From: a virus | Lineage: Duplodnaviria > Heunggongvirae > Uroviricota > Caudoviricetes | Virus record (IMG/VR): IMGVR_UViG_2645727593_000017 | Location: 1 to 7,541 of that record | Length of the DNA: 7,541 bases | Strand: one strand, 5' to 3' | Shown here: positions 1-7,541 of the stretch, in pieces | Layout: each line of letters opens with the position of its first letter | How positions within the stretch are numbered: position 1 is the stretch's first letter | Program-made: the position numbers and the translations under genes | The notes under the pieces: generated by a model | The model's input: only the letters and a program-made list of their open reading frames with translations | The model's database searches: none | Told to the model about the DNA's origin: nothing

Positions 1-1119
1 TCAAATAACCAACTTAACCCATTCCTGACCTCGAGTATCGTTATAGCGATCGGTGGTTGCCTGGACTTTATGTCCTAGTAATGTTTTTGTATCGATACCC
101 TGTGCACGGTACAGCCGTTCTGATAGAGAGCGTTGTTCATGAAATGTTGGCGGAGTTTTTCCTGCTGGTGGAATTATCCCAGCCAGATCCCGTGCTTTGG
201 CAAAGTAGCCGCTCAGGTTGTCTTTACTCATCGGCTTCGGTTGTTTCTGGTGCCGACTATGGATTAGATATGGACTTAATATTCTGTCTCGGCACCCATC
301 AATAACTTCTTTTAACGTTATCCCAATGGCATCACAGCGTAGTGTAAGCGGTAATGCCAGACGCATTCCGGTTTTTCCCTGGGTGATATGCAAGTGTTCG
401 TTCCACACATCTGAAAAACGCATGTGGCAAATGTCATCACGGCGCTGACCAGTAACAATCGCAAGAAGCATTGCGTTACGGATAAAGTGTTTTTCAGGCG
501 TTGTATTGTAAATTTTTTGCCAGTCTTCCATGGTGAGCCTGGCTCTGGTTACTTTAGGGATCGGTTTACGGGTAGCCTCCGGAGGATTCCATCCAGGAGG
601 AACTTCCCCTGCATGCTGTGCTTCTTTATAAATATCAACCCATAATCCACGATTTACTCTCGCTGTGCTGACCATGTCTTTATCCAGCCACTCATCCAGT
701 ATTAATGCAAAGTCTCTTACTTCCAGTTCTTTCAATGGGTGGTTTCCCAGACGGGAAACCAGGTATGCAGCCATTCGAGTTTTTTCTTTGTGAGTTGTAG
801 CTGCAATATCTCCATTTTTCAGTCGCGCGTCCTGTATTTTCAGATATCGATCAACCCATGCCTTTAATCTGATGCCCCGACGTTTTGTTGCTGACGGACT
901 TTCATCAATTTTGCGCATGAAATATTCAGCTTCTGCTGCAGCTATTCGCTGATTGGCTGTGGAAGCGATTTTTTCTGCTTTGCCTTTGTCTGTTCCGAGA
1001 CCGTGAAATTTTCCAGTCACAGGGTTTTTATACTGGTAGTAAACCCTGCCAGTTCTGCGATCAAACTTTTCGTAAAGACCGGTTACGTCAGTGCTGTTTT
1101 TTCGTGGCCTCGGTGACAT
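1..1119 (-). CDS. int: Phage tyrosine integrase (lambda Int family), complete, 372 aa
   Basis: Complete ORF with ATG at 1119-1117 and TGA at 3-1. AAGGAG Shine-Dalgarno lies 10 nt upstream of the start. The N-terminal arm-binding region resembles lambda Int (YYQYKNPVTGKFHGLGTDK). The C-terminus carries tyrosine-recombinase catalytic motifs (HEQRSLSERLY ... LLGHK ... TTDRYNDTRG, with the catalytic Tyr). The start overlaps the 3' end of xis as in lambda. Confidence 0.93.
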   Translation of the reverse strand: MSPRPRKNSTDVTGLYEKFDRRTGRVYYQYKNPVTGKFHGLGTDKGKAEKIASTANQRIAAAEAEYFMRKIDESPSATKRRGIRLKAWVDRYLKIQDARLKNGDIAATTHKEKTRMAAYLVSRLGNHPLKELEVRDFALILDEWLDKDMVSTARVNRGLWVDIYKEAQHAGEVPPGWNPPEATRKPIPKVTRARLTMEDWQKIYNTTPEKHFIRNAMLLAIVTGQRRDDICHMRFSDVWNEHLHITQGKTGMRLALPLTLRCDAIGITLKEVIDGCRDRILSPYLIHSRHQKQPKPMSKDNLSGYFAKARDLAGIIPPAGKTPPTFHEQRSLSERLYRAQGIDTKTLLGHKVQATTDRYNDTRGQEWVKLVI

Positions 1120-1339
1120 GAGTTAAAATCTCCTTCAGTGCATCATCATCGCCAGTATGAATTTCCGGCGCAATTCCCGTTTCACCAGGTCCAACAAATA
1201 CTGCCCGGCGATCTATCAGCCAACGCCCACGAATTTTTTGTGGTCTTGGAACGATGTATCCTAGTTTTCCGTATTTCACCAGGGTAGTGTTTGTTATTGG
1301 GAGACTGAACCGTTTTGGTTTCCACTCGTCGAGCGTCAT
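1088..1339 (-). CDS. xis: Excisionase (Xis/AlpA-like winged-helix DNA-binding protein), about 83 aa
   Basis: The product MTLDEWKPKRFSLPITNTTLVKYGKLGYIVPRPQKIRGRWLIDRRAVFV resembles the lambda Xis N-terminus (LTLQEW ... winged helix). The 3' end overlaps the int start by 32 nt, the usual xis-int arrangement. The start is ambiguous: in-frame ATGs at 1339, 1348 and 1387. Confidence 0.75.
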   Translation of the reverse strand: MTLDEWKPKRFSLPITNTTLVKYGKLGYIVPRPQKIRGRWLIDRRAVFVGPGETGIAPEIHTGDDDALKEILTHVTEATKKQH

Positions 1340-2951
1340 CAAGTGCATTATGGCGCTCACCTTCGAATGGGATAGCCGTTCTGGCATCGAAGTCTATGGC
1401 TTTCCCCAGCTCAACGATTGTGCGTACATCGCGATCGTTGTAGTAACGCCACGGGCAGGGGATCCCCTGCCGTTCGTATGAACGGCGCAAAATCGTGTTG
1501 TCGAAGTTGGCTCCATTTCCCCAGACCTGAACAAAAAATTCACCGGAGTTTTCGTCGATAAATTCCCGCAATTGCAGTAGTGCATCATCTAACGGGATTT
1601 CATCGGTCATAATGGCAGACTGCGCTTCACGTGATTGCTTCAGCCACCATTTAATGGTGTCACGATCAATGACTCCGCCAGCAGTTTCCAGATCGATAGT
1701 CTTACTAAATTCCGGTCCCATATCTCCGGTTTGCGGATCGAAAAATATTGCACCTATTGAGATAATCGGGGCATCAGGATTTTTTCCCATGGTTTCAAGG
1801 TCGATCATTAGATGGTCACACGTCCTGCTGGTGGATGTGATAACGCGATGACCGTTCACCGTAATTAAGGGATCTGCCGTCTCGCCAGTTTCACTATCGC
1901 TGGCGTGATCCTGAGCGCTGCCAGCATTCTCCTTGTGTGGATGTTCAGCGCCTTCCATTTTCTCCGAATCGTCTTCCTGAACTTCAACCTGGTTCTTGTC
2001 ATCGAATGTTTCCTGGTATGTTGCGTCGCCCATCACCGCACCACAATCAGGGCAGTTGCCACCGCCGGTCTGACCGCAGGCGGTGCAGACTTTTTCCACT
2101 TCCTGTTGCGCCACTGGTTCAGGCTGTTTCGTTTCTGGCTCGTTTTGTAACGCATTTGGGCTGTTTTGTTCCGCTTTCTGGTCGTTCTGTTCCGTTTCTT
2201 GCTGGTTCTGGTTCACAGAATCGCGGGTTTCAATCCCCTTCACCCATTTCGGATCATTCGGGTCGCTAATCCCTGCAACAAATTCACCACGTGATGCGGC
2301 GAGCAACTGATTGGCGTCAGGCTGGCTGATATTGGCTGCCTGCATAATTTTGTTTACTTCGTCAGCGGTAACTTTTACCGGTTCTGGCTGTGCGGTCGTG
2401 TCAGATGCACCAGTATTTTGTTGTGAACCTGAGTATGTACTGTTTTTGCGGGCGAAATATTCTTCTTTCGTGATTTCAGTAGCCCCGGCAGCCAGCGCCT
2501 TATCCAGACCAGAAAGTTTGTTTGCGCGACCGTATTTTTCGCCATCCTTGTCGGTGAAGAGGAAGTAGAACGGCCCCTCACGCTCTACAGATGGTTCGAC
2601 TTCCACTTTGCATTCGGTTTTTTCGTTGTCCGGAATTGCCGTTTCCACTGCATCAGTTTCTGGTACTGGCGACGAGAGAGTATCAGTTGCGCTCTGATTT
2701 GTTCCTTCATCTTCAAACACGCCCTTTGTAGTCAGGTATTCAGTAATGTATTTGTTCAGTGCCACAGGATCTTTGTGAATGTCGATCGGACGTTCACGGA
2801 CAAGGCCAAAAATAGTCTGGCGGTCGTAGCGAAGGGCATCAGGCTGTTTGCGCATCGATGCCGAGATACGCTTCCAGTCTTCGCGGTCGTTGTCGATAAC
2901 TTCATTTTTTGCCCAGCGATGGATGCTGCCGTCAATGTTTCCGGCATCCAC
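1182..2951 (-). CDS. Large acidic protein with C4 zinc ribbon and C-terminal DEDDh (DnaQ-like) 3'-5' exonuclease domain; probably the downstream part of an ~850-codon frame interrupted by TGA at 2961-2963
   Basis: 589-codon ORF. Exo I motif MIDLETMG at nt 1788-1808, Exo II WGNGANFDNTIL around nt 1500-1517, Exo III HNALDDA (H-x-A-x-x-D-A) at nt 1332-1352. CTACGQTGGGNCPDC (C-x2-C-x7-C-x2-C) zinc ribbon at nt 2043-2087. Q/E-rich acidic linker upstream of the ribbon. The ORF begins with GTG directly after an in-frame TGA, with no Shine-Dalgarno and no ATG until codon 33. Confidence 0.7.
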   Translation of the reverse strand: MDAGNIDGSIHRWAKNEVIDNDREDWKRISASMRKQPDALRYDRQTIFGLVRERPIDIHKDPVALNKYITEYLTTKGVFEDEGTNQSATDTLSSPVPETDAVETAIPDNEKTECKVEVEPSVEREGPFYFLFTDKDGEKYGRANKLSGLDKALAAGATEITKEEYFARKNSTYSGSQQNTGASDTTAQPEPVKVTADEVNKIMQAANISQPDANQLLAASRGEFVAGISDPNDPKWVKGIETRDSVNQNQQETEQNDQKAEQNSPNALQNEPETKQPEPVAQQEVEKVCTACGQTGGGNCPDCGAVMGDATYQETFDDKNQVEVQEDDSEKMEGAEHPHKENAGSAQDHASDSETGETADPLITVNGHRVITSTSRTCDHLMIDLETMGKNPDAPIISIGAIFFDPQTGDMGPEFSKTIDLETAGGVIDRDTIKWWLKQSREAQSAIMTDEIPLDDALLQLREFIDENSGEFFVQVWGNGANFDNTILRRSYERQGIPCPWRYYNDRDVRTIVELGKAIDFDARTAIPFEGERHNALDDARRVETKTVQSPNNKHYPGEIRKTRIHRSKTTKNSWALADRSPGSICWTW

Positions 2952-2960
2952 ATCACCAGG

Positions 2961-3737
2961 TCAGAGAGCGTAGGCCAGTTCGTCATCCAGTGTTTTCCAT
3001 GTCTGCTTATATTCGCGACGAATGACTGCAGTGACAGGGGGGATTTTTTCTGCTGAGTTTTCAGTGTGCTGTCGGTGGACTCTGGCGCGGGCGAGATCAA
3101 CAACAGACGTGTATTTTCCGGTTTCCTTGCGTTCACCTTCGCGACGTTTTTTCCAGATGCGCATCTCTGCCTGAATTTCGGGCCATTTGGCACCAGGCTT
3201 ACATTTATGCTTAACCCACCCGATGGCATGCAGCTTAAGCTCCGGATACATGGCGTTAACTTCTGGCATTTTCATCAACGCTTCAACGATATGTCCGTCG
3301 AATGTTGCCATGTCTTCCTGCAACAATTCCTGCGCGCTAATCACCATATCAACGGTGATGTTTTCACATGTGTCGAACTTAACCATGACAGCGTTCTGTA
3401 CTTCAAGGGACAGTTTGTCAAAATTGACGTTCATCGGTTCGGATTCTGGTTCGACCGGAATAAAGGAAGCGGATTCCTCATCCCAGCGGTTTTCCTGCAT
3501 ATATTCGGTATCCCAGGAGTCGATAGCAGGGCGGGGCATGCCGGGTTTATCCTCGCAGATAAGAAATTTATAAGCGCAGTCCTGAGCAGCCGGATATTGC
3601 TCCAGGAATTGCCAGGTAAATTTGGCACGGGCGCGGCGTTCGTCACCGGCTTCAATGGCAGTGGCTACAGCAACTGCACCTTCTTCCTTTATTGCCTGTT
3701 CGTCCGGAATGGCGGCGCAAATAAAGACTTTACTCAT
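2961..3737 (-). CDS. Hypothetical acidic protein, 258 aa; likely the N-terminal part of the interrupted large nuclease gene
   Basis: ATG at 3737 with GAGG 10 nt upstream. Same strand and same reading frame as ORF 1182-2951, separated from it only by TGA-CCT-GGT-GAT. The composition looks protein-like, whereas the antisense ORF 3066-3755 is F/G/L-rich, typical of a mirror frame. No recognisable motifs. Confidence 0.6.
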   Translation of the reverse strand: MSKVFICAAIPDEQAIKEEGAVAVATAIEAGDERRARAKFTWQFLEQYPAAQDCAYKFLICEDKPGMPRPAIDSWDTEYMQENRWDEESASFIPVEPESEPMNVNFDKLSLEVQNAVMVKFDTCENITVDMVISAQELLQEDMATFDGHIVEALMKMPEVNAMYPELKLHAIGWVKHKCKPGAKWPEIQAEMRIWKKRREGERKETGKYTSVVDLARARVHRQHTENSAEKIPPVTAVIRREYKQTWKTLDDELAYAL

Positions 3738-3860
3738 TTTGTTTTAACCTCATGACAGATTTAAGGATGAACAAATCCCTGCCATTGCTGGCATATAAGA
3801 ATCAAATCTGATGTATTCATTAAGCTGAATGTCGTATTGTGGCAGTTATTTTATTACTGC

Positions 3861-4082
3861 TCACCATGACTCTGCTTTTACAGGTAAACCATCACGACCA
3901 AGGAAGACTTTAATCATGGTTTCCTTAATACAGTGTTGTGTGGAAAAATCACGAATATAGAGCCGTTGTTTTTTAATGTTGTTTACCGAAGCAATATATG
4001 TTCTTCCTTTATGAATAACATAATCACCGGGAGTCACGCACTGACGAGGAATCTCATCAGTTCCGAAGTGATGAGCAATCAT
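3861..4082 (-). CDS. kilR: KilR-like small killing / cell-division inhibitor protein, 73 aa
   Basis: The [76 protein letters not shown] matches in length and sequence my recollection of Rac KilR. The start was chosen at the ATG at 4082, which has GGAG 6 nt upstream; the track ORF begins 4 codons earlier. Position left of the immunity region fits Rac gene order. Confidence 0.6.
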
Positions 4083-4655
4083 AATTATCTCCATTTTTAC
4101 AAATGAACTTTGTTGATGCGGTGCCTGGTGCCTCCAGGTGACGTTAACCAGTTAACAATTAACGCCGGATACAGAGAGCCCACCCATAACACTGTTTTTG
4201 GTTTTAACTGTTCCGCGTGCGCTCAGCCGCATTCACCGCATCACAAAACTCACTTTAAAAAGGGCGGCAGACCAGTCACGGAGTAAAACTGATACCGCCA
4301 AACGTCACCAGAAAATTGATAACAGAGGGCGTTGCAGCGGGGTTGTCACTTAAGCGTATGGTCAACCTGACAACCCGGTGTCCTCAACGGGGGAAGGAAT
4401 AACCCCGCCATACTTACCGCCGCGCCATTTCGCGGATTGCCACAACCGGAAGCGCACGGTCGACGAAAATTTAACGACAGGCTATCTATGAACCAGCTAC
4501 CTCGCCGTGCGCTTTCGCGTTATGGTCTGACTTTTCAGGGAAATATCCTTTCAGTAAACTGTCAGTGCCGGATGCTCACCCGTGTCCGGCGCAAGCACTC
4601 CACCTCACCCGTGGAGAACTCCTTAATTACCAACCTTAGCTTCGTTGGTTAGCTA

Positions 4656-4874
4656 TTAACGCGGGTATGTAATCATTCTGGCAATGGTTAATGCCGCTGC
4701 TTTTTCCAGATTGGTGATATCCTGCTCCAGAGAGGACAGATTTTCAGCCTGCTTAGCCCTGACTTCATTAGCCCATTTCAGATCCTGCGCTGCATTAATT
4801 TTCTGGTGCATCCACTCATAAAGTTCATCATTGGTATAGTCTGGCGCGATGATGACGGGTTCTCGTTTCTGCAT
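4656..4874 (-). CDS. Hypothetical small protein, 72 aa, early-left operon
   Basis: ATG at 4874 preceded by GAGGA (spacer about 6 nt). Lies directly downstream of the 42-codon ORF in a PL-driven cluster. No recognisable motif. Confidence 0.5.
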   Translation of the reverse strand: MQKREPVIIAPDYTNDELYEWMHQKINAAQDLKWANEVRAKQAENLSSLEQDITNLEKAAALTIARMITYPR

Positions 4875-4903
4875 ACTGATTCCTCGCGGTGCTGTTTCGC
4901 TTA

Positions 4904-5032
4904 TCAGCCATTAGATTTTGCCGAACTGGAAAGCACCTGTTTAAATTCGTTGAAGCTGTGAGCTTCTTCGCCTTCGGCAAGGCCTTCGAAGTATTCTTCG
5001 TAAGCCTTTTCCATGATTGTGTCGAAATCCAT
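4904..5032 (-). CDS. Hypothetical small acidic protein, 42 aa (below the ORF-track size cutoff)
   Basis: Minus-strand ORF MDFDTIMEKAYEEYFEGLAEGEEAHSFNEFKQVLSSSAKSNG. Its ATG at 5032-5030 sits 1 nt after the TGA of the upstream ORF (TGAtATG), suggesting translational coupling. GGTGGG lies upstream. Confidence 0.35.
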   Translation of the reverse strand: MDFDTIMEKAYEEYFEGLAEGEEAHSFNEFKQVLSSSAKSNG

Positions 5033-5033
5033 A

Positions 5034-5270
5034 TCACCCACCTGAATTTCTTTCCAGCCAGCGACGCGCTCCAGATTCGGTTTTAAACGTTTTGCTTTTG
5101 GTATACGTCATTGCGGTGAACGTACCGTACTGGTTGGGGAACACGCCACATACCAGAGATTCGCTGTTGCCAAGATCGATAGTATCCATGCTGACCTCAT
5201 TTCCCCTTAACGCCGGGGTAGCGGAACAAAAACCTGCTGCATAGTTATTAAAGTTGAACCCTGCCGTCAT
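5034..5270 (-). CDS. Hypothetical small protein, first gene downstream of PL (78 aa from ATG 5270, or 51 aa from ATG 5189)
   Basis: ORF ... MDTIDLGNSESLVCGVFPNQYGTFTAMTYTKSKTFKTESGARRWLERNSGG. Both candidate starts have GAGG upstream. It sits about 95 nt downstream of the predicted PL transcription start. Possibly equivalent to the small ydaF/ydaG-type Rac genes, but I cannot confirm this. Confidence 0.5.
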   Translation of the reverse strand: MTAGFNFNNYAAGFCSATPALRGNEVSMDTIDLGNSESLVCGVFPNQYGTFTAMTYTKSKTFKTESGARRWLERNSGG

Positions 5271-5370
5271 GTTCTTACGCCTCGGGCTGGCTACTTAACC
5301 CGTGACCACTGCCTGGTAACTCGAGGTATTGCCCTGTATTGTGTGGGACGGGATGGGTTGGTATGGGAAA

Positions 5371-5399
5371 ACTATAGGAAATGCCTAATTACTTGTCAA
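5371..5399 (-). promoter_or_regulatory. PL-like early leftward promoter: -35 TTGACA (5399-5394), 17-bp spacer, -10 TATAGT (5376-5371)
   Basis: Read on the minus strand: TTGACA-agtaattaggcatttcc-TATAGT. The -35 is consensus, the -10 is a 5/6 match and the spacing is optimal. Operator half-sites GCCTAAT overlap the spacer and the -35. Confidence 0.55.
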
Positions 5400-5435
5400 T
5401 AGGCTATGCCTAATAATTTGGGCGCAACCTAATAG
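5380..5435. promoter_or_regulatory. OL-like operator cluster (ATAGGC-TAT-GCCTAAT plus flanking CCTAAT half-sites)
   Basis: Positions 5393-5415 are the exact reverse complement of 6037-6059. The palindromic half-site GCCTAAT/ATTAGGC occurs at 5383-5389, 5409-5415 and, as CCTAAT, at 5429-5434. Confidence 0.5.
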
Positions 5436-5472
5436 GTGATGGTTTGTGGAAGAGGTAGTAGGAGTTAACTAA

Positions 5473-5492
5473 CGGGAACTAGGAATTTCCCG
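5473..5492 (-). terminator. Candidate stem-loop downstream of the repressor gene (CGGGAA-N8-TTCCCG), weak intrinsic terminator
   Basis: 6-bp GC-rich stem with 8-nt loop, 16 nt past the repressor stop codon. On the minus strand it is followed by TTAGTT, only a weak U-tract. Confidence 0.3.
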
Positions 5493-5507
5493 TCGGACCA
5501 TATAAGT

Positions 5508-5984
5508 TTAAGTTCCTGTCTTGGTGATGTTCTGGCTTTTCCGTTTTGATGCTTGATTTTTCAGATAGTTAGCTACCTTCATTTCCATTGCGGCAATGTA
5601 GGCGCGAACGTCATGATCAACCCAACTAGGCTCCGTAGCATTTCCAGATAAGATGAAAGCCACAATTGCTCTTTTTTCATCAGAGGCGGCTTGATAAAGG
5701 CTGTTTATGTCTAAAAGTTCACTTTTTGTATCTGAAGTGGATGGGGTTGGTATGGGGTATTCGTTAAGCCCCCAATGCTCTGGACCAACCACATCAGAAA
5801 AGAAACGCCATAGTTCTGGAAGTTTGTCTTTACTTATCGAACCTTTCTTAATCCAGTCATGGATTGATGGTGGTTGGACTTTGAAATGACGTGCGATTTC
5901 CGCCTTTGATTTGACGGCTCCTGATGCAATTTTTTTGTTAATGGCCTGCTCTATCGCTCGGCCTAAATCTTTACCACTAAGCAT
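5508..5984 (-). CDS. racR: Prophage immunity repressor, HTH_XRE type, 158 aa, no LexA-like peptidase domain (RacR-like)
   Basis: ATG at 5984 with AGGAGA upstream. HTH segment KSKAEIARHFKVQPPSIHDWIKKG. Divergent from a cro-like gene and flanked by operator/promoter inverted repeats. Length and neighbourhood (KilR-like to the left, YdaS/YdaT-like to the right) match Rac. The symbol is assigned by architecture, not by sequence recall. Confidence 0.65.
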   Translation of the reverse strand: MLSGKDLGRAIEQAINKKIASGAVKSKAEIARHFKVQPPSIHDWIKKGSISKDKLPELWRFFSDVVGPEHWGLNEYPIPTPSTSDTKSELLDINSLYQAASDEKRAIVAFILSGNATEPSWVDHDVRAYIAAMEMKVANYLKNQASKRKSQNITKTGT

Positions 5985-6036
5985 TGCTTAATAGTCTCCT
6001 ATGCGCATCGCGTTAGGCAATCCCTACTCTCGATGT

Positions 6037-6079
6037 ATTAGGCATAGCCTATTGACAATTTCATTAGGCTAAGCCTAAT
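6037..6079. promoter_or_regulatory. OR-like operators: ATTAGGC-ATA-GCCTATT (6038-6054) and perfect palindrome ATTAGGC-TAA-GCCTAAT (6063-6079)
   Basis: Two 17-bp palindromes with 7-bp arms and 3-bp centre, 25 bp apart centre to centre, overlapping PR. The left one is part of the 23-bp inverted repeat shared with OL. Confidence 0.55.
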
Positions 6080-6081
6080 AT
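6052..6081 (+). promoter_or_regulatory. PR-like early rightward promoter: -35 TTGACA (6052-6057), -10 TAATAT (6076-6081, 18-bp spacer) or CTAATA (17-bp spacer)
   Basis: Consensus -35 located 52 bp upstream of the cro-like ATG. The -10 region is embedded in the perfect operator palindrome. Confidence 0.5.
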
Positions 6082-6108
6082 TGTTGCGTGTTTTTTGGAG
6101 TTCATTCG

Positions 6109-6432
6109 ATGAAAAAAGATAACTATTCATTCAAACGAGCTTGTGCTGTTGTCGGTGGGCAATCAGCAATGGCTAGGCTTTTAGGTGTATCTCCTCCAAG
6201 CGTAAATCAATGGATCAAAGGTGTACGTCAGTTACCTGCTGAGAGATGTCCTGCGATTGAACGAGCAACAAAAGGTGGTGTCCTGTGTGAAGAACTTCGT
6301 CCTGATGTTGATTGGACATACTTACGACGCTCGTCATGTTATTCGCAGAATATGTCGATGAAGCAACCAAATGACGAAAACGATCATACCCGAAGCATCA
6401 AGAGGCAAATGATTCATGAAAATCAAACATGA
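6109..6432 (+). CDS. ydaS: Cro/YdaS-like HTH regulator, 107 aa
   Basis: ATG at 6109 with GGAG 8 nt upstream; the track ORF begins at an upstream GTG at 6088. HTH segment QSAMARLLGVSPPSVNQWIKGVRQLP. Divergent from the repressor across the operator region. Its 3' end overlaps the next gene by 17 nt. Confidence 0.7.
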   Translation: MKKDNYSFKRACAVVGGQSAMARLLGVSPPSVNQWIKGVRQLPAERCPAIERATKGGVLCEELRPDVDWTYLRRSSCYSQNMSMKQPNDENDHTRSIKRQMIHENQT

Positions 6433-6841
6433 GCACATCCGCATGGCGATGAATGCCTGGGCATACCCTGATGGTGAGAAAGTTCCTGCAGCTGAAATAG
6501 CCCGGACTTATTTCGAACTGGGGATGACGTTCCCTGAACTGTACGACGACAGCCATCCGGAAGCCCTGGCCCGTAATACCCAGAAAATTTTCCGTTGGCT
6601 GGATAAAGACACCCCTGATGCTGTTGAAAAAATGCAGGCTCTGTTACCGGCGATCGAAAAGGCGATGCCGCCTTTGCTGGTGGCCCGTATGCGCAGCCAC
6701 AGTTCTGAATATTACCGTGAGATCGTCGAACGGAGGGATCGGCTGGTGAAGGATGTCGATGATTTTGTTGCGTCAGCGGTTGTTTTGTATGACCAGATGA
6801 ATCGCGGCGGCCCGGCAGGGAATGCTGTGGTGATGCACTAA
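6416..6841 (+). CDS. ydaT: YdaT-like protein (CII-like or toxic regulator family), 141 aa
   Basis: ATG at 6416 with AGAGG upstream, overlapping the ydaS-like stop. Length and position match the Rac racR-ydaS-ydaT arrangement. The antisense ORF 6423-6881 is P/S/R-rich and judged spurious. Confidence 0.65.
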   Translation: MKIKHEHIRMAMNAWAYPDGEKVPAAEIARTYFELGMTFPELYDDSHPEALARNTQKIFRWLDKDTPDAVEKMQALLPAIEKAMPPLLVARMRSHSSEYYREIVERRDRLVKDVDDFVASAVVLYDQMNRGGPAGNAVVMH

Positions 6842-6863
6842 AAGCACGGTGTTCGGGGGTTTT

Positions 6864-7541
6864 ATGAGCAGCAAGCTTCATGGTCTTGTCTGGGAAGGGT
6901 GCGCCTTCACCGGCATGATCTTATCCAGGGTGGCGGTTATGGCCCGTCTTGCAGACTACAGCAATGACGAGGGCGTGTCATGGCCTGCCATTGAAACTAT
7001 CCGGCGTCAGATCGGTGCAAGAAGTGAATCCACAGTGAAATCGGCTATTGCAGAACTGGCGAAAGAGGGCTGGCTGACGAAGGAAGAGCGTAAGGTCGGT
7101 GGGCGTAATGTAAGCAATATCTATCGGCTTAATGTGGAAAAACTCGAAGCAGCTGCGGCGGCGGCGCGTGAGTCATATAAACCGAAAAGAAAAATTAGCC
7201 CGGCAAAAAATGACCCGTTAACAGTTGACCCGTCAAATATTGACCCCTCAACGGTTGACCCGTCAAATTTTGATGGATCAACTGTTGATAAAAAACTGCC
7301 GATTAGGGGGGCGATGATTGACCCCGATCCGTCAGTATTAAAACCTGATCCGTCAGATAAAAGATCTTCTTGTCCGGACGCTTCGCAACCGGACCCGCAG
7401 ACGGCTGAACAGGATTTTTTAACCCGACACCCTGACGCGGTTGTGTTCAGTGCGAAAAAACGCCAGTGGGGAAGTCAGGAAGATTTGGTGTGCGCACAGT
7501 GGATCTGGGGACGAATCGTGAGTCTTTACGAGCAGGCGGCC
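6864..7541 (+). CDS. Replication initiator, lambda O-like, with N-terminal winged-helix and internal iterons; 3'-partial (runs off the window)
   Basis: ATG at 6864 with GGGGG upstream; open to the window end (226 codons). The N-terminus (ARLADYSNDEGVSWPAIETIRRQIGARSESTVKSAIAELAKEGWL) looks like a helix-turn-helix replication protein. Tandem DNA iterons inside the coding sequence encode DPLTVDPSNIDPSTVDPSNFDGSTVD. Confidence 0.7.
   Translation, partial: MSSKLHGLVWEGCAFTGMILSRVAVMARLADYSNDEGVSWPAIETIRRQIGARSESTVKSAIAELAKEGWLTKEERKVGGRNVSNIYRLNVEKLEAAAAAARESYKPKRKISPAKNDPLTVDPSNIDPSTVDPSNFDGSTVDKKLPIRGAMIDPDPSVLKPDPSDKRSSCPDASQPDPQTAEQDFLTRHPDAVVFSAKKRQWGSQEDLVCAQWIWGRIVSLYEQAA
7209..7300. repeat. 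Iteron array (candidate phage replication origin) with adjacent A-rich tract
   Basis: Four or five copies of a 15-16-bp unit with an internal palindrome TTGAC-CC-GTCAA: tgacccgttaacag, ttgacccgtcaaatat, ttgacccctcaacgg, ttgacccgtcaaattt, tgatggatcaactg. These are followed by ttgataaaaaactg. Confidence 0.55.

Follow-up and report, generated by a model that had tools for sequence, protein, structure and literature searches.

The window analysed here is the whole 7,541-nucleotide (nt) stretch of the Caudoviricetes record IMGVR_UViG_2645727593_000017 in IMG/VR (positions 1 to 7,541), and our subject is a run of three small open reading frames (ORFs) which lies on its minus strand between an early leftward promoter (PL) and the gene of the small RNA DicF. 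The window corresponds to a lambdoid prophage's early-left and immunity region, and all the features listed in an earlier note on this DNA, which was made from the letters alone, were confirmed on the minus strand. The best explanation, which we hold with high confidence, is that ORF1, ORF2 and ORF3 are ydfA, ydfB and ydfC, the cistrons nearest to the promoter in an early-left operon of the dicBF type, which belongs to a Rac/Qin-like lambdoid prophage of Escherichia coli. The three genes are long known and already catalogued, and as a discovery they carry little weight, since they have been named in E. coli K-12 for decades and the dicBF operon is well studied. As a pointer they matter somewhat: ydfA, ydfB and ydfC are still uncharacterised, and parts of the module are present in about 87% of complete E. 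coli genomes (4747 of 5426 carried the 1.7-kilobase region or parts of it in a Megablast search).

Identity and conservation of the three ORFs

The ORF1 product matched the Pfam family DUF1391 (PF07151) over the whole profile (positions 1-48 of 48) with E = 1.3e-25 and 89.2-90.8 bits (cutoff 27.3), and all three products matched PHROG families of unknown function, YdfB phrog_2061 (1.2e-27) and YdfC phrog_1744 (1.7e-38). Compared with the Qin prophage proteins of E. coli K-12 MG1655, 46 of 51 residues were identical in YdfA, 39 of 42 in YdfB and 67 of 72 in YdfC (90-93%), and at the DNA level a stretch of 1126 nt, which begins a little upstream of ydfA, includes dicF and ends right before dicB, shared 96% identity with K-12 Qin. 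In near-identical relatives, RefSeq names the products 'DUF1391 family protein' (ydfA), 'protein YdfB' and 'protein YdfC'. Because of these Pfam, PHROG and RefSeq matches and the identities to K-12, we assign the three ORFs to ydfA, ydfB and ydfC of a dicBF-type operon, and the earlier statement that none of them matched a family recognised with certainty has to be given up.

Previous studies described the K-12 operon as ydfABC-dicF-dicB-ydfD(E), with a single DicA-repressed promoter upstream of ydfA (PMC5069750, PMC10448788, PMC9438474); upon derepression, a ydfABC-dicF transcript is made and processed to DicF by the RNases E and III (PMC10448788). In the window the three genes recur with unchanged order and spacing, and ydfA-ydfB-ydfC-dicF lie on one strand downstream of a repressor-controlled promoter, as in Qin. 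However, its repressor and its operators (TTAGGC-N4-GCCTAA) are of the RacR type and not of the DicA type, the leader between promoter and ydfA is longer, and downstream of dicF the place of an intact dicB and ydfD is taken by a dicB remnant followed by a Rac-type kil. The ydfABC-dicF module was found under at least three repressor types, and before either dicB-ydfD or kil, among 258 related loci; in the window its neighbours are a RacR-type immunity region on one side and kil on the other.

The Rac prophage of K-12 (racR-ydaG-ydaF-kilR) resembles the window in its RacR-type repressor, its conserved leader, its hairpin/Shine-Dalgarno element, an early leftward DUF1391 gene (ydaF) and a downstream kil, but it has a UBA-like ydaG before the DUF1391 gene and lacks ydfB, ydfC and dicF. 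In the Rac K-12-type loci (L088-L093), the YdaG of 44 amino acids (aa), encoded just before ydaF, matched the UBA-like family PF14555 (3e-5). The PL operon of phage lambda (N, ral, cIII, kil) likewise opens with small genes directly behind a leftward promoter under repressor control, and a division inhibitor, genes for recombination, xis and int come after them, but there is no sequence relation, and the marks of lambda N-type antitermination are lacking in the window, where none of the three proteins contains an arginine-rich motif and no boxA was found within one mismatch at any position. The earlier view of the trio as the first cistrons of a repressor-controlled leftward early operon in a lambdoid prophage agrees with gene order, promoter and operators alike.

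That the three small ORFs lie head to tail and are real was borne out by comparison of 204 homologous blocks, 89 of them unique. The 51/42/72-aa trio was intact in 79 of the 89 unique blocks, the TGATATG junction was kept in 88 and the 29-nt ydfB-ydfC spacer in 86. Pooled Nei-Gojobori ratios of nonsynonymous to synonymous differences (pN/pS), obtained from an earlier, smaller set of 97 loci with 17-27 unique sequences per ORF, were 0.18 for ydfA, 0.21 for ydfB and 0.49 for ydfC (the last based on little divergence) in the annotated frames and 0.46 to 7.5 in the off-frames; the variable sites were concentrated at third codon positions, with a synonymous bias in the annotated frames only. Protein relatives of YdfC down to 57-64% identity kept about the same length (72 and 79 aa). 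As shown by these comparisons, all three frames are conserved, and at the sequence level ydfA and ydfB are under purifying selection; the trio also survived the search for frameshifts in relatives that had been proposed as a check.

ORF1 had been given a length of 51 to 78 aa, the longer form starting at the ATG at 5270. Relatives differ in the 5190-5270 stretch by indels of 1, 3 and 4 nt, which in some of them give a net shift of -2 or -8; everything upstream of 5227 is replaced in Qin-type loci, and where another gene lies downstream, the 'long ORF' enters unrelated sequence. The variable sites between the ATG at 5270 and that at 5189 were distributed 9/12/14 by codon position, without bias, and the two N-termini that occur among predicted proteins, FNFNNYAAGF and TLCITAQQVF, turned out to be two reading frames of the same DNA. 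The 78-aa form, which did not survive the frameshift check, is therefore not coding and the 51-aa RefSeq start is correct, which settles the start of ydfA.

The stop of ORF1 and the start of ORF2 are arranged as TGAtATG at 5036-5030, as described before, so that the ydfB ATG begins one base after the ydfA stop, and the GAGGA Shine-Dalgarno sequence reported for ORF3 lies 6 nt upstream of its ATG. The term 'translationally coupled', which had been applied to all three ORFs, holds in the sense of a coupling-type junction for ORF1-ORF2 and does not extend to ORF3, which has its own Shine-Dalgarno sequence and a 29-nt spacer.

Promoter, leader and neighbouring genes

The features of the window are collected in Table 1.

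Table 1. Features of the 7,541-nt window with their positions, strands and supporting evidence.
Feature	Position	Strand	Remarks
Integrase gene	1-1119	-	excisionase on the same strand
Exonuclease gene	1182-3737	-	split by a nonsense codon
kil, Rac-type FtsZ inhibitor	3861-4082	-	NCBIfam NF008465, 2.3e-41; phrog_294; RefSeq annotation
dicB 5'-part remnant, pseudogene	4109-4192 (about)	-	RefSeq 'DicB, incomplete' in the 99.6%-identical relative L001
DicF small RNA	4262-4313	-	Rfam RF00039, 74.2 bits (gathering score 48), E = 1.9e-15, full-length 1-52
Untranslated ydfC-dicF spacer	4314-4655	-	within the 1126-nt stretch 96% identical to K-12 Qin
ydfC (ORF3)	4656-4874	-	72 aa; ATG 4874; own GAGGA Shine-Dalgarno 4885-4881
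ydfB (ORF2)	4904-5032	-	42 aa; ATG 5032; stop 4904
ydfA (ORF1)	5034-5189	-	51 aa; ATG 5189; stop 5034-5036; DUF1391
Near-invariant element GTTCCGCTACCCCGGCGTTAAGGGGAAATGAGGTCAGC	5190-5227	-	just 5' of the ydfA ATG
Untranslated leader, about 175 nt	5190-5364	-	indels and segment swaps in relatives
PL-like sigma-70 promoter	5371-5399	-	TTGACA, 17-nt spacer, TATAGT
OL operator array	5374-5434		TTAGGC-N4-GCCTAA copies 5374-5387 and 5399-5412; weaker copy 5418-5434
RacR-type repressor gene	5508-5984	-	NCBIfam NF049929, 245.8 bits (cutoff 200); upstream, same strand

The leftward promoter matches 11 of 12 consensus positions, and transcription is predicted to start near 5364, beside position 5365, at which homology to relatives with other immunity regions begins. 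Two to three copies of the operator motif overlap this promoter, and the same motif occurs three times at 25-26 base pair spacing at the divergent racR/cro promoter (6013-6077), where a ydaS-like cro and ydaT on the plus strand diverge from the repressor gene; moreover, an exact 23-nt inverted copy (5393-5415 / 6036-6058) covers the -35 box of both promoters. Since these operators and promoters have the layout of the leftward and rightward operators (OL/OR) of a lambdoid immunity region, the name PL, which the earlier note had used, is justified. In the Rac prophage of K-12, interference with RacR or its loss derepresses the homologous leftward genes, namely ydaF (PMC11014345) and ydaG and kilR (PMC11014345 and a 2026 bioRxiv preprint). 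We also observed an exact 13-nt direct repeat, GGGTTGGTATGGG, at 5355-5367 and 5744-5756, with one copy at the mosaic joint and predicted transcription start and the other within the repressor gene; by our rough estimate, its chance occurrence in 831 nt is unlikely.

The leader segment 5199-5364 is highly conserved in 161 related loci under different immunity regions, Rac K-12 included, and this conservation does not exceed that of the flanking genes and therefore supports no conclusion on a function of the leader. In a look for a structured leader RNA or a nut/put-like element, its fold proved no more stable than that of shuffled sequence (z = +0.92), a search of it against Rfam returned no match and boxA was lacking. 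The 38 nt before the ydfA ATG (GTTCCGCTACCCCGGCGTTAAGGGGAAATGAGGTCAGC) are common to all upstream classes, that is, the window, DicA/Qin and Rac K-12 types, and hold a small CCCC/GGGG hairpin (5218-5203), present in the centroid fold, and a GAGG Shine-Dalgarno sequence (5198-5195).

Downstream of the trio, the K-12 equivalent of the ydfC-dicF spacer is the 3' untranslated region from which DicF is processed (PMC5069750, PMC10448788). kil occupies the place of dicB-ydfD, and the coordinates of the dicB remnant before it were transferred from L001 (window position = L001 position - 201). The dicF-kil interval that contains this remnant (4109-4246) also gave an overlapping, sub-threshold match to the Rfam small RNA STnc100 (37.6 bits, gathering score 47). 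The exonuclease gene is interrupted once, at codon 259, where TGG has become the nonsense codon TGA (2961-2963), and apart from this it shares 99.9% identity over 803 aa with an intact relative of 823 aa; its 3' end diverges from that relative from about 1330, and the open frame enters the excisionase gene. The nonsense codon may mean that this prophage copy is decaying, or it may be a sequencing error.

YdfA and the DUF1391 family

A DUF1391 profile search among 1.84 billion representative proteins returned 333 clusters at E <= 0.001 and 113 at E <= 1e-10. Most members are small and solo, with about one in ten of the top 150 exceeding 200 aa, and the clusters include proteins of 440-935 aa and one member of 1572 aa. 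The family shares a polar signature, DxGNNE...DGTFTA...SKxFKTxxGAxxW, which reads DLGNSE...YGTFTA...SKTFKTESGARRW in the window, where the otherwise conserved Asp21 is a Tyr. The AlphaFold2 model of YdfA consists of three strands (residues 15-18, 24-27 and 32-35) and a helix (38-48), with block-mean predicted local distance difference test (pLDDT) scores of 84-95 over residues 11-50. Searches of PDB sequences with all three proteins found nothing significant.

Among ten large DUF1391 proteins that we scanned, DarA_N was present in five and ArdC-N with DUF3560 in two; the Pfam scores of DUF1391 in the large fusion proteins were 62-81 bits. DarA stands for 'defence against restriction A'. The fusions also matched an anti-restriction PHROG and phrog_1926, which is described as 'released from the phage upon host infection'; one fusion gene adjoins portal and tail genes, and another belongs to an element that also has integrase and methyltransferase genes. 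The presence of DUF1391 inside large proteins of phages and mobile elements, beside anti-restriction domains, appears to be new, and from these profile matches we regard it as one modest lead; new as well are the place of DUF1391 first after the repressor in a distant lambdoid phage, the constant pairing of YdfB with YdfA and the independence of ydfC. Polyvalent proteins with DarA_N or ArdC-N, from phages and conjugative elements, were described as effectors that enter along with the invading DNA and act in the early phase (Iyer, Burroughs, Anand, de Souza & Aravind 2017, PMC5512222), a paper that does not mention DUF1391, and a link of ydfA through DUF1391 to DarA_N or ArdC-N was not found in the searchable literature. 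YdfA has DUF1391, and possibly the early-invasion action, in common with such proteins, but it is a solo protein of 51 aa made from an early promoter and not a domain of a large packaged polypeptide in which several effector domains are combined.

Outside E. coli, the DUF1391 gene is the first ORF after the repressor and the leftward promoter in the lambdoid Serratia phage OS31, whose cI is of the LexA type, and it lies in a block of small unannotated genes in Pantoea phage Nafs113. In OS31 (L262, 3457-4483), the leftward leader that precedes this first ORF contains a canonical boxA (GCTCTTTAACAA), and two 45-aa arginine-rich ORFs (isoelectric points (pI) 11.4 and 11.6) follow, one of which holds RRRARREIRTQRRRA, resembling an N-type arginine-rich motif. 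In a distant metagenomic relative (L260, 3960-4000), palindromic operator-like repeats (TGTGTACACA and TGTGTATACA) precede the DUF1391 gene, and the next gene again begins one base after its stop. A conserved downstream partner was not found among these non-E. coli loci, the neighbours in the metagenomic relative, OS31 and Nafs113 being unrelated to YdfB and YdfC. Some DUF1391 matches 74-98% identical to the E. coli-type protein of the window lay on contigs binned as metagenome-assembled genomes of Collinsella, Veillonella, Nanosynbacter and Bacillota (L084, L085, L093 and L095), and these are most likely binning contamination.

Several phage records (H18-H20, H53-H61; ON470583.1, PV340562.1) label YdfA as 'head-DNA stabilization protein D'. 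The sole basis that we found for this label is a resemblance to lambda gpD over 20 residues (E = 0.18), which is noise, and we rejected a relation between the two proteins; the resemblance explains the label, which is likely a misannotation that has spread between records. A role of DUF1391 as a plasmid leading-region gene was also rejected, since the domain is nearly missing from true plasmids: only 19 plasmid records were found, 18 of them non-mobilizable and one mobilizable, mostly chromosome-sized or very large, and the IncI1 'ydfA' in PMC12111858 is a name clash.

Possible roles of YdfA, YdfB and YdfC

The events on the operon, in part read from the sequence and in part carried over from the 96%-identical K-12 copy, may be described as follows. 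The repressor would hold the leftward promoter off; once transcription starts there, the leader of about 175 nt would be followed by ydfA, with ydfA and ydfB translated in a coupling-type layout and ydfC from its own ribosome-binding site, and the same transcript would continue through the untranslated region into DicF, the dicB remnant and kil and be processed to yield DicF. In a tentative functional reading, YdfA would be a free-standing beta-beta-beta-alpha binding module which elsewhere forms part of virion-carried or transferred polyvalent proteins, and its task, counter-defence or the protection of DNA, would fall at the very beginning of lytic development. YdfB would be an acidic amphipathic helix, made by coupled translation, that serves as partner or modulator of YdfA, and YdfC, in which a conserved peptide at the N-terminus is joined to a long helix of the coiled-coil type, would be an independent accessory cassette.

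The counter-defence role of YdfA is suggested because DUF1391 elsewhere adjoins the DarA_N or ArdC-N anti-restriction domains. Taken as a whole, with YdfA in early counter-defence or DNA protection, YdfB as its partner and YdfC as an accessory cassette, this functional reading is tentative, and we would put it below even chances; that YdfA and the coupled acidic YdfB form a two-part counter-defence or DNA-protection unit, the first product of PL in Rac/Qin-type prophages, is possible and somewhat more doubtful still. The general guess of the earlier note, that such first genes are anti-defence genes, thus receives indirect support from the fusions of the ORF1 family with DarA_N and ArdC-N and not from ORF2. 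Three observations make a testable lead: DUF1391 in DarA_N/ArdC-N proteins, its position first after PL across genera and its obligate pairing with YdfB in E. coli.

Several points weigh against this interpretation. The fusion evidence is guilt by association, and DUF1391 may be a DNA-binding or adaptor module without anti-restriction activity; small solo proteins make up about 90% of the 150 top-ranking DUF1391 members, the near-neutral pI of YdfA (7.9) is atypical of a DNA binder, and PADLOC gave no match for the three proteins. ydfA, ydfB and ydfC are called uncharacterised in the papers on the K-12 operon and still stand on a 2024 list of uncharacterised E. coli genes (PMC11551758), evidence of their translation by ribosome profiling or mass spectrometry, including direct evidence of YdfB expression, was not found in the searchable literature, little divergence underlies the ydfC ratio, and the nonsense codon in the exonuclease gene may mark a decaying prophage copy.

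Among the other explanations, YdfA could be a small sequence-specific nucleic-acid-binding regulator in the 'N position' after PL that controls early-left transcription, acting for example on read-through of the DicF terminator. AP2/ERF and integrase arm-type domains have a three-stranded sheet followed by a helix, and the predicted YdfA model shows this layout, a three-stranded antiparallel sheet on a C-terminal helix, with a best superposition on such domains of 1.6 A over 37 residues at 27% identity. However, none of the fold matches reached significance, profile comparison with the prophage's own Int arm domain gave nothing, arginine-rich motif and boxA are both lacking in the window, and the residues conserved in this near-neutral protein are not Arg or Lys but Asp, Asn, Glu, Ser and Thr. 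We consider a regulator of this kind unlikely.

Slightly less probable is that ydfABC is mainly a translated leader whose proteins have no function of their own, with ribosomes shielding the transcript from Rho and nucleases for the benefit of DicF and the division inhibitors. The K-12 operon was very toxic when driven from Plac, and a strain deleted for dicF and dicB and retaining ydfABC grew and looked like the wild type (PMC5069750), so that all phenotypes of the induced operon vanish with dicF and dicB; the toxicity was attributed to these two and not to ydfABC (PMC5069750). At that level of expression, YdfA, YdfB and YdfC are therefore neither toxic nor a block to division. In addition, the ydfA part of the transcript becomes less stable when RNase E cuts upstream of dicF (PMC10448788), about 20 loci lack ydfC, at least 15 have a 99-aa ORF instead of ydfA-ydfB, and the pN/pS ratio of ydfC is the highest of the three. 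A pure spacer, however, needs no conserved amino-acid sequence, which ydfA and ydfB possess according to their pN/pS ratios, and DUF1391 is widespread, with an invariant polar motif across genera, also in phages without dicF.

It is quite improbable that the proteins act alongside DicF, DicB and Kil in tuning the division or metabolism of the host cell, as their constant synteny with division inhibitors in E. coli and the overexpression screens of the ASKA library, in which ydfA was a candidate for resistance to H2O2 and ydfB for resistance to H2O2 and HOCl (PMC8228696), might suggest; against it, induced K-12 cells without dicF and dicB are normal although ydfABC is expressed, and DUF1391 occurs in Serratia and Pantoea phages without dicF, dicB and kil. 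Apart from the work on the K-12 operon and the 2024 list, the ASKA screens are the one mention of the three proteins that was found.

The least probable of these explanations is that YdfB is a DNA mimic which inhibits restriction, recombination or another DNA-binding defence enzyme. The ORF2 product is exactly MDFDTIMEKAYEEYFEGLAEGEEAHSFNEFKQVLSSSAKSNG, the 42-aa peptide quoted earlier, and it is indeed strongly acidic (pI 4.2, net charge -7.4, 10 Asp/Glu in 42 residues); this dense negative charge, the place of ydfB in the early-left operon and an obligate neighbour with a domain found in anti-restriction proteins are as expected of a DNA mimic. However, no PDB sequence matched YdfB even at E <= 10, no Pfam, NCBIfam or PADLOC family was hit, and in these sequence searches no homology or structural resemblance to a known DNA mimic appeared. 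High negative charge is all that YdfB has in common with T7 Ocr and ArdA, to which it has no sequence similarity and compared with which it is much smaller. The smallest characterised DNA mimics are, to our knowledge, about 56 aa long and dimeric, and YdfB is shorter. Its invariant residues include acidic positions as well as a hydrophobic stripe at positions 3, 6, 7, 10, 11, 14, 15 and 18, and its hydrophobic moment is 1.14, compared with 0.60 +/- 0.30 for shuffled sequences; the 3-4 spacing of F3, I6, M7, A10, Y11, Y14 and F15 fits an amphipathic helix which binds a partner and packs against it. All named homologs of YdfB are Escherichia proteins, and among the 80 loci retrieved with YdfB, ydfA was directly upstream in 79, the remaining one being cut by a contig end, so ydfB was never found on its own.

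These features, namely the stripe, the lack of matches, the constant neighbour and the joint replacement of both genes, fit YdfB as a partner of YdfA better than a stand-alone DNA mimic, and the earlier comparison of the peptide with DNA-mimic inhibitors finds no support. The joint replacement is seen in the class with the 99-aa ORF, which takes the place of ydfA and ydfB together; this ORF (MALYIDISAIAGQVR...), which matched no family, lies between the same leader and ydfC in L022, L025, L061, L075 (about 2630-2929) and at least 11 other loci. ydfA and ydfB are thus lost or replaced jointly and ydfC varies independently of them, being missing from about 20 ydfA-ydfB-dicF loci and present without ydfA-ydfB in the 99-aa-ORF class, and therefore we regard ydfC as an independent cassette. 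Its product is predicted by AlphaFold2 to form one long helix over residues 15-69 (pLDDT 87), and residues 1-21 are its most conserved part, with a mean column identity of 0.95 compared with 0.81 for the rest.

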